Part shown: positions 16,585 through 20,746 of the stretch, piece by piece | Layout of the letters: every line of letters begins with the position of its first letter | How positions within the stretch are numbered: position 1 is the stretch's first letter | Assembly (NCBI GenBank): GCA_014653355.1 | Contig: JACWEO010000001.1 | Span: forward strand, 12,912 to 76,911 | DNA from: Pelagibacterales bacterium SAG-MED47 | GTDB taxonomy: Bacteria > Pseudomonadota > Alphaproteobacteria > Pelagibacterales > Pelagibacteraceae | DNA length: 64,000 bases | Direction of reading: 5' to 3' | Notes under the pieces: generated by a model | What the model saw: the letters and a program-made list of their open reading frames with translations, nothing else | Databases searched by the model: none | What the model was told of the DNA's origin: nothing | Made by a program: the position numbers and the translations under genes

Positions 16585-16662
16585 ATGCCTAAAAGAAGAA
16601 AAAAAGCAAAGAAGGCTAAGAAAAAAGCTAAGAAAAAAGCTAAGAAAAGAAGAAGAAGATAA
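16585..16662 (+). CDS. 25-aa Lys/Arg/Ala peptide MPKRRKKAKKAKKKAKKKAKKRRRR (absent from the ORF track)
   Basis: SD AAGGGAG ~6 nt upstream, double stop TAATAA, own promoter and terminator, 12-bp tandem repeat GCTAAGAAAAAA. Confidence 0.8.
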   Translation: MPKRRKKAKKAKKKAKKKAKKRRRR

Positions 16663-16682: not shown

Positions 16683-16727
16683 AAAACGCTTCTCATAACG
16701 ATATTCGTGTGAGAGGCGTTTTTTTTT
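16683..16727. terminator. Bidirectional intrinsic terminator
   Basis: Stem AAAACGCTTCTCAT / GTGAGAGGCGTTTT (with G-U pairs), 9-T tract on the + strand, TTTT on the - strand; lies directly between the peptide gene and the carD stop. Confidence 0.85.
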
Positions 16728-17565
16728 ATTCTTCTAGAACTTCTTCACTGTCTGAAATAGGTTCTTCATTACTTAAATTAGGTGAAGGATTTTTTGTTAT
16801 TTGTTGTTGAGTGGCAGGTTGTGGACTTAAATTTCTTTTGAGAGCTTTATCTAATTTTTTTTGGGTATCTTCTAATGAAATATTTAATATAATTTGAAAT
16901 TCAGCCAATATTCTTTCATAAGCCTTTTCGAACAATTGTCTTTCACTGTAAGATTGATCAACCATTAAATCGTCACCTTTATTTAAATCTCTTACTACCT
17001 CTGCGAGTTCATAAATTTTACCAGAGGAAATTTTTGCCTCATATTCTTGAGCACGCCTACTCCACATAGATCTTCTTATTTTAGGTTTACTTTTTAGTAT
17101 TGAGATACATTTATTAACTTGATTTATAGTTGCTAAAGCCCGAAGATGTGATTGTTTGTTGACTGGGACCATACCATTAGCTTTATCTTTCTCAAATTTA
17201 ATTACATAGGTTTCAACATCAATTCCACCAATATTAATTTTTTTAAATTCTGTAATCTGACCAACGCCGTGTTTAGGATAAACTACATAATCTTTAATTT
17301 TATATTGTCTTTTTTCTGTGTCTTGTTTTTTGACTTTTTTAATTTCTGGCTTTAATTCATTGCTTTTGGGAATTCTAAGATTATCTGTTTTTGTATCTAA
17401 TTTACTAGTGCTTTTTTTGATTATTTTTTTTGTTAATGATTTCTTGATTTTTGTTACAACTACTTTCTTTGGTTTCTTACTTAGAATTTTTTTTTTTTTA
17501 CTTACTTTTTTTTTTTGTTTTTTAAAGGTTTTCTTTAAAATATTTTTCAAACTTATTTTGCTCAT
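16726..17565 (-). CDS. carD: CarD-family RNA polymerase-binding transcription factor with a Lys-rich N-terminal extension (start uncertain: 17565, 17580 or 17607)
   Basis: [36 protein letters not shown] and [12 protein letters not shown]. There is no in-frame ATG between the fdxA stop and the CarD domain. Confidence 0.9.
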
Positions 17566-17848
17566 CTTTATATTTTTCATGATCCGATGGTGGATCTTTT
17601 TTTTCACTAATATTTGGCCAGATTTCAGAATACTGTTTATTGATTTCTAACCATTTTTCGCTTCCTGACTCAGTATCAGCTTTAATAGCATCAACTGGAC
17701 ACTCTGGCTCACAAACGCCACAATCTATACACTCATCCGGTTTAATTACAAGCATATTTTTACCCTCATAAAAACAATCTACTGGACACACGTCAACACA
17801 ATCCATTAATTTACATTTTATACATTTGTCATTAACTATGTAGGTCAC
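17522..17848 (-). CDS. fdxA: FdxA-family dicluster ferredoxin
   Basis: [21 protein letters not shown] and [12 protein letters not shown]; upstream of carD as in other alphaproteobacteria. Confidence 0.95.
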
Positions 17849-18264
17849 TATGAATTTTCTTTTTTGATTTTATCTTTGATATCTCCCATAATTTTATTGT
17901 CAATATACAATAAACCAGCAAGTCGTCTCATCAAACTTGTTTCATACATATCTGCTTCATTATTTGAGTAAATTATTTGCCATAAGGTTTCAATAATTTG
18001 AATCTTTTTTTTATTATCTATATTCTTAACTTCTTTTGTAAAATCTAAAATTTGATTAGAATTTTCCTCTATTTTATTAGCCTGATACAATAAATTGTCT
18101 ATATTTTCATTTGTAGCTCCAATTTTTAAAATTGCTTTTTTTATTATTTCTTCCTCTTTTTTTGTATAATTCTCATCAATTTTTGCCGCATGAATCAATA
18201 AAGCTGTAATTTTAATCAAATCATCATCAGGTTTATCAATCTTATCTTTTTTAAAAAATATCAT
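17848..18264 (-). CDS. TerB-family (tellurite resistance B-like) protein
   Basis: [34 protein letters not shown] pattern. Confidence 0.8.
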
Positions 18265-18265
18265 A

Positions 18266-20746
18266 CTAATTTAAATTTAAATCTTTCAAAATACCAAACG
18301 GGTTTTCTTTTAAATTTTTTTTAATGAATTTTTTTTTATTTTTCATTTCTCGTTTATATTTGAAAAAAATTTCATTATTTTTTTCAATAATTATATAATT
18401 CATATTTTTTAAAAGATTTTTAAAGTTATCCTTACTACAACCTAATAAATTAAGCATTTCAGGTTTCATTTTTATTTCTTTATTTTTTTCAGGATTTGAA
18501 TTTATGATTTGAACAAATAACCTTTCTAAAATATCAATTCTTATAAAAAAATTTTCAAATTTTTCAAATCCACATAGAAGCATAAAACTTTTATTTTTAA
18601 TTTTGTTATCATTCAAAAAATTTAATCCAAAAGTTGGTGGTTTTAAATTGAAATATTTCTGATGATAATTTTTCCAAAGTAAGGTTCTAAATAAAACTGC
18701 TTCTGGTTTAATTAATTTAAATAAAAAAACATGATATCTTCCAAATTTTACTCCCAGATCTCTCAAAATTTTTCTTTCGTTTTGACCTAAATTTTTTAGG
18801 TAATCAGTGACATTCTCTCTTTTTAAAACTCCGTTATTTTCATAAAGTTGATATGATAAAGCTTTCACTGAGGAATTTTTTTCTTTTAAATTTTTTAAAT
18901 CAATTAGACTTTTGAGAATTGTGTCTATTTTATTCTTTAACCATATTTCTAAAAAATTAGTTAATTTTTGTCTTTGATTTGTGTCCAAAATATCGTCAAC
19001 TAATAATTCTAGATTAGGATTTAAGTAATCTCTTCCAGGTGTTATTCTACCTATTGATGATTTGTTCCAATAAATCTTAAAATCATCATGTAGCTCTATG
19101 GAACCTGAATCTATAATAGCTTGAACTCTTTTTTGAAGTTCTGGACCTATAGTTTGTCTAGCAGCCTTTTTAAGTGATTTTATATCAGTTTCCAGTGCAC
19201 CTTTTTTTAAATCTAATTCTAGTTTTAAACCATTAATTCTACCGATAAACTGTTCATCTATCATTACTTCGTTGTTCTTTAAAATTTTAGTATTAAATTC
19301 CATATCTTGTTTTAAACCTCTAGCTAGAACACTCGCTCTTTTATCAATAAATGTTTTAGAAAGTTCTTCATGAAGCCTATCTGAGAGTTTGTCTTCCAGT
19401 AATTTTGTCTTTTCTACCCAATAGTTTTGATTTTCTACCCAGTTATTTTTATTTGAAACATAAGACCAAGTCCTTACATTTGCAATTCTATTTGATAAAG
19501 AATCAACATTTCCCTCTAATTTATCTAATTTGATGAGTTTAAGGCGCATATAATCGTCTGTTATTTTGGCTTTATGGCTACTTAGATAGGTGAATACACT
19601 GCTTATTACTTCGTAGTGGTGACCATAGGTTTTTTTTACAAAATCTGGTATCTGACAGCATTCCCACAAAAGACTTAATTTTTCTCTATTTAATTCAATT
19701 TTTTCTAAATTTTTATCTCTTAAAAAATATTTTAAAGCTTTTTCATCAATACACTCGTGTATTTTTCTAAGCCAACTTCTACTTGGTTTTTCATCTAAAG
19801 ATTTAATTAGGACTGAAGAGTTATCAAAATTTAAATTTGAATTTCTCCAAAAAAGTGTTTTGATTTCTTCAAATTTATGATTTTCTAATAATTCAACTTC
19901 TTCATTATTTATCTCTTTGCATTGACCGGTAATTCCAAAGTTGCCATCATTAAGATATCTACCTGCACGACCAGCTATTTGTCCAATTTCTGATAAATTT
20001 AATTTTCTTAATTTTTTTCCATCGAATTTTTTAAGATTAGAGAAATAAACGTGATCTATATCCATATTAATTCCCATACCAATAGCGTCTGTGGCTACTA
20101 AAAAATCTACATCTCCAGATTGATATAAATTAACTTGGGCATTTCTAGTTTTTGGGCTTAAAGAACCCATAACTATGGCAGCCCCTCCCTTTTGTCTTCT
20201 AATTAACTCAGCAATGGCATAAACCTCTTCTGTAGAGAAAGCTATAATTGCTGTCTTTCTATTTATTCTTGAGATTTTTTTATGACCAGCATACGTGAGA
20301 TTGGACAGTCTATTTCTATTAACAAATTCAATGTCACCATCTAATTTAGAAATAATATTTTTAATTGTATAAGAACCCATAAACATAGTTAATTTTTCAC
20401 CTCTCATATTGAGTAATCGATCTGTAAAAATATGACCACGTTCATGATCTGCACACATTTGAATTTCATCAATAGCAACAAAATCTAGTTGCTTATCAAT
20501 AGGCATTGACTCAACAGTACATAAAAAATACTTTGCATTAGTTGGTATAATTTTTTCTTCACCCGTAATCAAAGCAACTTTGTCTAAACTAGTTTTTTTG
20601 ATTACTTTGTCGTAAACTTCTCTTGCAAGTAATCTTAATGGAAAACCAATCATTCCACTATCAAAAGACATCATGGTTTCTATAGCTAAATGAGTTTTTC
20701 CTGTATTTGTAGGACCCAAAACTGCAGTAATTTTGTTTTTAGTCAT
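18266..20746 (-). CDS. SF2 helicase, SUV3/MgpS-like
   Basis: LGPTNTGKT (Walker A), AIDEIQ, VATDAIGMGIN, QIAGRAGR. Confidence 0.88.
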   Translation of the reverse strand: MTKNKITAVLGPTNTGKTHLAIETMMSFDSGMIGFPLRLLAREVYDKVIKKTSLDKVALITGEEKIIPTNAKYFLCTVESMPIDKQLDFVAIDEIQMCADHERGHIFTDRLLNMRGEKLTMFMGSYTIKNIISKLDGDIEFVNRNRLSNLTYAGHKKISRINRKTAIIAFSTEEVYAIAELIRRQKGGAAIVMGSLSPKTRNAQVNLYQSGDVDFLVATDAIGMGINMDIDHVYFSNLKKFDGKKLRKLNLSEIGQIAGRAGRYLNDGNFGITGQCKEINNEEVELLENHKFEEIKTLFWRNSNLNFDNSSVLIKSLDEKPSRSWLRKIHECIDEKALKYFLRDKNLEKIELNREKLSLLWECCQIPDFVKKTYGHHYEVISSVFTYLSSHKAKITDDYMRLKLIKLDKLEGNVDSLSNRIANVRTWSYVSNKNNWVENQNYWVEKTKLLEDKLSDRLHEELSKTFIDKRASVLARGLKQDMEFNTKILKNNEVMIDEQFIGRINGLKLELDLKKGALETDIKSLKKAARQTIGPELQKRVQAIIDSGSIELHDDFKIYWNKSSIGRITPGRDYLNPNLELLVDDILDTNQRQKLTNFLEIWLKNKIDTILKSLIDLKNLKEKNSSVKALSYQLYENNGVLKRENVTDYLKNLGQNERKILRDLGVKFGRYHVFLFKLIKPEAVLFRTLLWKNYHQKYFNLKPPTFGLNFLNDNKIKNKSFMLLCGFEKFENFFIRIDILERLFVQIINSNPEKNKEIKMKPEMLNLLGCSKDNFKNLLKNMNYIIIEKNNEIFFKYKREMKNKKKFIKKNLKENPFGILKDLNLN

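Follow-up and report, generated by a model that had tools for sequence, protein, structure and literature searches.

Proteins of the CdnL/CarD family are global factors needed for normal growth in the Alphaproteobacteria studied and are thought to compensate for weak -10 elements (PMC8407463). [quoted passage not shown] An additional DNA-binding region is known from M. xanthus CarD, in which an HMGA-like basic domain confers a DNA binding on which activity depends and an acidic stretch is also present (PMC2919716); a passage of the same article ascribes a histone H1-like domain to Anaeromyxobacter CarD (PMC2919716). A basic domain in front of an RNAP-binding factor has been described for Streptomyces DdbA (SCO2075), where a 93-residue H1-like N-terminal domain precedes a DksA-like module and itself binds and condenses DNA in vitro (PMC3643593).

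The window analysed here is a stretch of 64,000 nucleotides from Pelagibacterales bacterium SAG-MED47 (contig JACWEO010000001.1). On its minus strand, a cdnL/carD-family gene at 16726-17565 (279 codons plus the stop codon at 16726-16728, within an open reading frame that as a whole spans 16726-17607) encodes a 279-aa protein, identified from the ORF list, the sequence, and Pfam matches to PF02559 and PF21095. The RNAP-interacting, Tudor-like domain occupies residues 88-143 (17137-17304, minus strand) and matches PF02559 (CarD_TRCF_RID) at 49.8 bits against a curated cut-off of 23, with beta strands at residues 93-134 in the AF2 model. The CarD C-terminal helical domain occupies residues 153-239 (16849-17109, minus strand) and matches PF21095 (CarD_C) at 67.4 bits against a curated cut-off of 23.1; both matches lie behind an N-terminal extension. 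The conserved tryptophan "wedge", W168 (17062-17064, minus strand), lies within the motif MWSRR and is invariant in the aligned homologues, and the role of the equivalent residue has been shown for W86 of Thermus CarD (PMC4593161). Solved CdnL/CarD chains align to residues 86-242, numbered from the ATG at 17565, from their own residue 3-10 onward, and none of them covers the residues ahead of approximately 86.

The protein shares with the stand-alone CdnL/CarD proteins the RID and helical core and the Trp wedge, and with other Alphaproteobacteria the fdxA-cdnL neighbourhood, but it has 87 additional residues at the N-terminus, its gene lacks a 5' leader, and an acidic end takes the place of the Ala-Ala degron. 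The extension of about 87 aa noted ahead of the CarD domain in a preliminary description of this DNA corresponds exactly, as residues 1-87, to positions 17305-17565. The gene product is a bona fide CdnL (CarD N-terminal-like) factor that consists of an ordinary core extended by 87 residues at the N-terminus and by a tail of 34 residues at the C-terminus. By homology, the core is predicted to bind the RNAP beta lobe and to stabilise the open complex. A search with the full-length protein returned a single match in its own genome, which is 91% complete, and no second paralogue was seen; the tailed protein appears to be the only CdnL of this genome.

Several lines of comparative evidence address whether the extension is part of the protein. 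The ATG at 17565 is conserved in those members of the genus with an intact 5' region. The upstream starts GTG 17607 and ATG 17580, the latter chosen by some gene callers to give a product of 284 aa, were rejected as they lack conservation in relatives. The next in-frame canonical start after ATG 17565 is a TTG five codons on; apart from it, the stretch of about 90 codons leading up to the domain contains no canonical start in the window or in most relatives. In the sister family, a single ATG is found 109-122 codons upstream and is preceded by GGAGG. In each of 28 genomes, the extension (92-121 codons) is free of stop codons in the CdnL frame, while the remaining two sense frames contain 11 and 14 on average. 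In the block preceding the domain, nucleotide diversity is 0.18, 0.17, and 0.39 at codon positions 1, 2, and 3, respectively, and this approximately twofold excess at the third position indicates purifying selection on the protein. Wherever homologues differ in length, the reading frame is preserved. By these comparative criteria, the extension is real, conserved, and translated from ATG 17565, and a minor short isoform initiated at a non-canonical codon might still be produced alongside. The preliminary description had raised the prospects of a non-canonical start just before the domain and of an extension that is not conserved; the conserved ATG, the open frame in 28 genomes, and the codon-position pattern speak against both. 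An antisense ORF of 110 aa on the plus strand (17318-17650) was discarded as a Phe-rich mirror artefact of the AAA/AAG codons, its frame being open because the sense frame lacks TTA, CTA, and TCA codons.

The extension is strongly basic. As first counted, its initial 52 residues include 24 Lys and no Asp or Glu, the first acidic residue being an Asp at position 57, and the 87 residues together contain 33 Lys (38%) and 2 Arg, giving a net charge of approximately +30. The background Lys content of the long ORFs in the window, which has a GC content of 27.8%, is 11.6%, and the next Lys-richest ORF reaches 16 Lys per 52 residues; genome-wide, the CdnL tail is the third most positively charged 52-residue stretch (1222 ORFs of at least 80 aa in the 1.13-Mb assembly). 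In composition the tail is rich in Lys, Ile, Ser, and Thr, with Ile, Leu, and Val making up approximately 23%, no Ala, and Pro at 3 of 87 positions. S/TPKK repeats are absent from the tail, a Pfam scan of the tail alone returned no family below E = 0.19, HC2 (PF07382) included, and the protein as a whole (279 residues) lacks an AT-hook of the RGRP type. The label "histone H1-like" that had been given to this segment is thus apt for its positive charge and its Lys:Arg ratio of 33:2, with a Lys content close to the approximately 40% of H1 C-terminal domains and a similar predicted disorder, but not for its lack of Ala, few Pro, many Ile, Leu, and Val residues, and absence of a Pfam match.

Three parts can be distinguished within the tail. 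Residues 1-16 (17518-17565, minus strand) form a conserved N-terminal motif that includes the conserved ATG and is largely invariant in the 40 aligned homologues, with a short helix modelled by AF2 at residues 6-14 (pLDDT of approximately 70). Part of this motif overlaps the final 14 codons of fdxA, and its core, KNILKK, is retained in genomes whose fdxA ends ahead of the cdnL ATG. Residues 17-58 (17392-17517, minus strand) make up a Lys-rich middle that is hypervariable by alignment diversity, in length as well as sequence, and disordered by AF2 prediction, pLDDT being below 50 over residues 17-63. This middle comprises about 45 residues of which approximately 45% are Lys, with a net charge of approximately +19, an amino-acid diversity of 0.64, near-equal diversity at codon positions 1, 2, and 3, and in-frame indels. 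Two A-runs of 12-13 nucleotides are located at about 17482-17518, a weak in-frame 21-nt repeat is present in this part of the gene, and one sister-family homologue carries a 30-nt repeat in 3.3 copies, 98% identical, inside the Lys-rich part. Across 28 genomes, the Lys fraction of the extension is steady at 0.37-0.45 with few acidic residues. Because this fraction is held despite in-frame indels and tandem duplications, the middle is probably under selection for composition rather than sequence.

The third part, residues 59-92 (17290-17391, minus strand), is a basic block adjoining the RNAP-interacting domain, recognised as conserved by its codon-position diversity. AF2 predicts no secondary structure in it, and it is kept in genus g8, where the tail is shorter. 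Compared by eye, the approximately 18 residues directly preceding the domain share four identically spaced features with the short CdnL leaders of Bradyrhizobium, Methyloceanibacter, and Rhodobacterales: a basic pair, a Thr, an aromatic residue, and a Lys. The tail therefore seems to have arisen by expansion at the front end of a short basic leader that was already present in an ancestor.

Of 201 Pelagibacterales genomes, 187 yielded the CdnL core, and a Lys-rich leader is present in every lineage of the order whose sequence was inspected, with lengths of 92-121 residues in the genus of the window, approximately 43-64 in another genus of the family, and 106-119 in the sister family. Outside the order, the comparison drew on 95 full-length representatives of 50%-identity clusters, those closest to this core; 66 of them have at least 60 residues before the domain. 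Tailed forms are over-represented in such a sample, as clusters are split by divergent low-complexity tails. Strongly basic pre-domain regions were found in 48 of these 66, reaching up to 366 residues and mostly rich in Lys, Ala, Pro, and Thr. Leader lengths in named genomes are patchy: 13-14 residues in Rhodobacterales, 18 in Methyloceanibacter, 71-80 in Bradyrhizobium, and pre-domain tails of approximately 150-270 residues in Hyphomicrobium, Parvibaculum, and related MAGs; numerous lineages of uncultured Alphaproteobacteria carry tails of this kind as well. The tail of one relative from a GC-rich genome (P0192) matches Pfam HC2, a histone H1-like nucleoprotein family, at 45.3 bits against a cut-off of 40. 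These tails resemble that of SAR11 in position, strong positive charge, and variability in length; however, they are Ala/Pro/Thr-rich, as encoded in GC-rich genomes, and mostly keep an Ala-Ala end, whereas the SAR11 tail is Lys/Ile/Ser/Thr-rich. Given their low complexity, the SAR11 and other tails may or may not share an origin.

That typical CarD/CdnL proteins have no such extension, as the preliminary description stated, holds for the characterised proteins, the solved chains being 158-170 aa apart from two domain fragments and one SUMO fusion, but not for the nearest relatives, 66 of 95 having at least 60 pre-domain residues. No description of an N-terminally tailed CdnL was found in the literature, and a survey of 239 alphaproteobacterial proteomes makes no mention of an N-terminal CdnL tail (PMC5324124). 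The feature represents the AT-rich form taken in one lineage by a CdnL variant that is widespread but undescribed, and is not a new kind of system.

The closest functional parallels are those of the myxobacteria and Streptomyces. In myxobacterial CarD, as here, a CarD-type RNAP-binding module is joined to an intrinsically basic region, and the parallel drawn earlier with Myxococcus CarD, which gains DNA binding from its added basic domain, is apt (PMC2919716). The myxobacterial basic domain, however, is C-terminal, contains AT-hooks or is Ala/Pro/Lys-rich, works with CarG, and belongs to a protein that coexists with a separate CdnL, whereas the SAR11 tail is N-terminal; the two proteins are probably functionally analogous and of independent origin. 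DdbA is similar in carrying an N-terminal basic domain of species-variable length ahead of an RNAP-binding factor, but its module is a secondary-channel DksA and its repeats are of the form (S/T)(A/T)AKK, while the SAR11 module is a beta-lobe CdnL and such repeats are absent. The tailed CdnL can thus be viewed as a functional analogue of both myxobacterial CarD and DdbA and a member of neither group.

By this analogy, the most likely role of the tail, and a plausible one, is that of a sequence-independent electrostatic DNA tether. Such a tail would hold CdnL on the AT-rich nucleoid and, on RNAP-bound CdnL, would add contacts to the duplex DNA flanking the promoter; we infer that, starting from the beta lobe, a disordered chain of this length could extend to the duplex at either edge of the bubble. 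Together, these effects would increase occupancy and prolong the life of the open complex in a bacterium whose specific regulators are few. More speculatively, the acidic C-terminal tail may fold back onto the basic tail and temper DNA binding.

Lys-rich stretches are not confined to CdnL in this genome. They occur at the N-termini of acetyl-CoA synthetase, where the stretch holds the only ATG, and of a protein of unknown function, as well as at the C-terminus of a DEAD-box RNA helicase, while the two HU/IHF-type genes of the genome have no tails. A Lys-rich tail alone is therefore no marker of a DNA-binding protein here, and the tail of CdnL might bind another polyanion, namely nascent rRNA or ribosomes, polyphosphate, or, by means of the short N-terminal helix and the polybasic run, the anionic inner membrane. 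The action of CdnL at rRNA promoters, the Lys-rich tails of the helicase, the synthetase, and the protein of unknown function, and the succession of a predicted helix (residues 6-14) and a polybasic run, in a tail with many hydrophobic residues, are each compatible with this reading. However, the helix is not significantly amphipathic, the hydrophobic moment of residues 2-16 being reached by 1778 of 5000 shuffles, the known working site of CdnL is promoter DNA, and the experimentally tested precedents, CarD and DdbA, bind DNA. A polyanion other than DNA as the target is therefore considered unlikely.

Part of the expansion could be neutral, because the extreme AT bias (27.8% GC) favours AAA codons and slippage. 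Taken further, the whole Lys-rich middle would be a largely neutral low-complexity expansion of a short basic leader, driven by AT bias and A-tract slippage and tolerated as a spacer, with function residing in the end blocks only. The near-equal diversity of the middle at all codon positions, its frequent indels, the recent in-frame tandem duplications, the range of tail lengths inside one family from approximately 43-64 to 121 residues, and the gain of a similar tail on DksA in a subclade only would all fit such a history. Against it, the leader is retained in streamlined genomes of 1.0-1.5 Mb with almost no spare DNA, across two families it keeps its frame intact, its Lys fraction at 0.37-0.45, and its acidic residues very few, and none of the inspected lineages has reverted to a leader of 13-18 residues of the kind seen in Rhodobacterales and Methyloceanibacter. 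A largely neutral middle is judged to be no more and no less likely than an alternative polyanion target, and the DNA tether is preferred to both.

A more far-reaching version of the tether, and a more doubtful one than either alternative above, is that in SAR11 cells CdnL doubles as an abundant nucleoid-bound protein resembling a linker histone, and that Lys-rich tails serve generally as a "nucleoid address tag", one also carried by acetyl-CoA synthetase, by other proteins, and, within a subclade, by DksA. If this were true, chromosome organisation, global transcription, and perhaps metabolism would be coupled, and the protamine-like peptide encoded beside cdnL would be a competitor or partner for the DNA surface. 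A rule that both RNAP factors are tailed was not upheld, as the DksA tail is found only in part of the genus and is absent from the sister family, and metabolic enzymes also have Lys-rich N-termini.

The opposite end of the protein raises a further alternative. The acidic C-terminal tail reported in the preliminary description is present as quoted: residues 246-279 (16729-16830, minus strand) form a variable disordered tail with a net charge of -6 that ends in an acidic run. The final residues are Glu-Glu, and acidic residues end most proteins of the genus, while those of the sister family end in LLN or PSI. The C-terminal Ala-Ala or Val-Ala that is usual in Alphaproteobacteria is absent from the window protein; this AA/VA end is a degron linked to ClpXP-dependent turnover in Caulobacter and is found in over 80% of alphaproteobacterial CdnL (PMC5324124), and an AA end is present in 53 of the 95 relatives (the nearest full-length cluster representatives). 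With net charges of about +30 for the N-terminal tail and -6 for the C-terminal one, and an acidic end in the genus in place of the common AA/VA, the two tails might act mainly on the protein itself through autoinhibition, through a control of stability that replaces the ClpXP Ala-Ala degron, or through a throttling of translation by the A-runs. The sister family, however, has the basic tail without the acidic end, and many relatives from GC-rich genomes combine a basic tail with an AA end, from which it follows that the tail is no degron substitute. Self-directed action of the tails is considered improbable, ranking below even the linker-histone-like role, and the DNA tether remains the favoured reading.

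The gene neighbourhood has two aspects that bear on the tail. Downstream, cdnL converges on a 25-aa polybasic ORF (16585-16662, plus strand), and between the two lies a hairpin (16683-16722) resembling a bidirectional terminator, so that both the convergence and the shared terminator-like element described earlier are present. Direct folding of the hairpin gave energies of -22.2 kcal/mol on the plus strand, where it is followed by U9, and -16.4 kcal/mol on the minus strand, with z-scores of -6.8 and -4.7 and no shuffle folding as well; a consensus terminator scan missed it. The hairpin could terminate both cdnL and the peptide gene. All 17 loci of the genus for which sufficient flanking sequence is available retain the convergent ORF, as do two more genera of this family, and 53-74 nt separate the stop codons of cdnL and the peptide gene. 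In the sister family, however, the Lys-rich CdnL is kept with no polybasic ORF within 1.5 kb, indicating that the tail is independent of the peptide; a degenerate pattern search of low sensitivity in five sister-family genomes also did not find the peptide. The proposal that the two genes form a chromatin/transcription module thus draws on a convergent arrangement and shared hairpin conserved within one family, where gene order is uniform across the loci inspected and synteny alone says little; convergent genes are not co-transcribed, and the neighbour is absent in the sister family. A functional module of CdnL and the peptide is very improbable on these grounds.

Upstream, cdnL is the last gene in a tightly packed row of a Suv3-like helicase gene, a terB-like gene, fdxA, and cdnL, the same order being found on a public contig. 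The fdxA gene (17522-17848) overlaps cdnL by 44 nt (17522-17565, minus strand), leaving no non-coding leader. In 75 of 80 other alphaproteobacterial loci, fdxA is also upstream of cdnL, at 231-1224 nt from the domain; there, cdnL follows a long leader or intergenic region (median 312 bp; PMC5324124), whereas here the interval is all coding. Although those long 5' regions (PMC5324124) and a distance from fdxA to the domain of approximately 230 nt, similar to that of short-form species, might recall an untranslated leader with a non-canonical start near the domain, this reading is barely credible, being already contradicted by comparative data: the frame open in 28 of 28 genomes (other frames: 11-14 stops), the purifying codon-position pattern, the in-frame indels, and the conserved ATG.

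SAR11 is a dominant bacterium of the ocean and has a minimal set of regulators. If the charged tail alters how promoters are found and held by a single general initiation factor, it would contribute to the way in which a streamlined, very AT-rich genome is transcribed. Beyond this order, basic N-terminal CdnL tails span many Alphaproteobacteria, including Bradyrhizobium and Hyphomicrobium, so that studies of the short proteins from Caulobacter, Rhodobacter, and Mycobacterium may overlook a trait that is common in the family.

The cdnL gene, which encodes the CdnL/CarD-family protein with a Lys-rich N-terminal tail, lies in a gene order that is widespread in the Alphaproteobacteria: 75 of the 80 alphaproteobacterial loci compared (L031 to L110), which span many orders, have fdxA as the next gene upstream, in the same orientation. 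In SAR11 this pair closes a row of genes, on the minus strand of the window, encoding a Suv3-like helicase, a TerB-like protein and FdxA (17522-20746) and then CdnL, whose ends abut or overlap. Three of the loci (L031, L037 and L048) carry cdnL and fdxA of alphaproteobacterial type, yet are titled as a Bacteroidota MAG, an Actinomycetota MAG and Nocardioides marinus; these off-lineage titles probably reflect mistakes made when the public records were binned or labelled.

On its other side, cdnL converges on a polybasic ORF (16585-16662, plus strand) that is left uncalled by gene callers and matched no NCBIfam model. Three genera of the family conserve this ORF in its convergent position next to cdnL (see also L147 to L151), where it encodes 22-30 residues that begin Met-Pro/Ala-Lys-Arg-Arg-Lys-Lys and end in an Arg run; no counterpart turned up in the sister family.

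Lys-rich stretches also occur on other proteins of the genome. DksA, identified by its Pfam DksA_N and zinc finger domains (L115, nt 1-531; contig C12:51529-52059, minus strand), carries a Lys-, Ala-, Pro- and Val-rich N-terminus of about 50 residues, followed by a conserved 'YM' at which the alignment with E. coli DksA can be anchored. This tail is present in roughly 10 genomes of the genus and, to judge by open frames that are shorter there (about 140-156 aa), absent in the remaining genus genomes and the sister family; a short form could also be produced from the internal ATG at codon 55 of L115. The highest positive charge of any stretch in the genome belongs to a protein of 408 aa that matched no Pfam family (L111, nt 1-1227; C41:16067-17293, minus strand), in which about 65 nearly purely Lys-rich residues follow a single ATG. 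A DEAD-box helicase (L114, nt 1-1428; C42:49657-51084) has a Lys/Phe-rich tail at its C-terminus, and an aldehyde dehydrogenase ORF (L112, nt 1-1740; C42:9217-10956) includes 65 Lys/Arg-rich codons that lie in frame upstream of ATGs within the ORF (codons 42, 66 and 71), which makes its true start uncertain. Acetyl-CoA synthetase (L113, nt 1-2073; C40:40922-42994, plus strand) begins with a run of about 45 residues, nearly all Lys, Arg, Asn and Ser, before its ACAS_N domain, with start codons at codon 1 (ATG) and codon 10 (GTG) and no others. The presence of such a tail on a metabolic enzyme counts against DNA binding as the default reading of these tails.

Opposite the Lys-rich tail of cdnL, an antisense ORF encoding 110 Phe/Leu-rich residues (17318-17650, plus strand) was rejected as a mirror artefact of AAA/AAG codons, which also leave this frame open in most relatives. 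In one cdnL of the sister family, a 30-nt unit inside the Lys-rich stretch is repeated 3.3 times with 98% identity (L030:1468-1565). Here a 10-residue unit has recently been duplicated in tandem and in frame, which illustrates how such tails grow.
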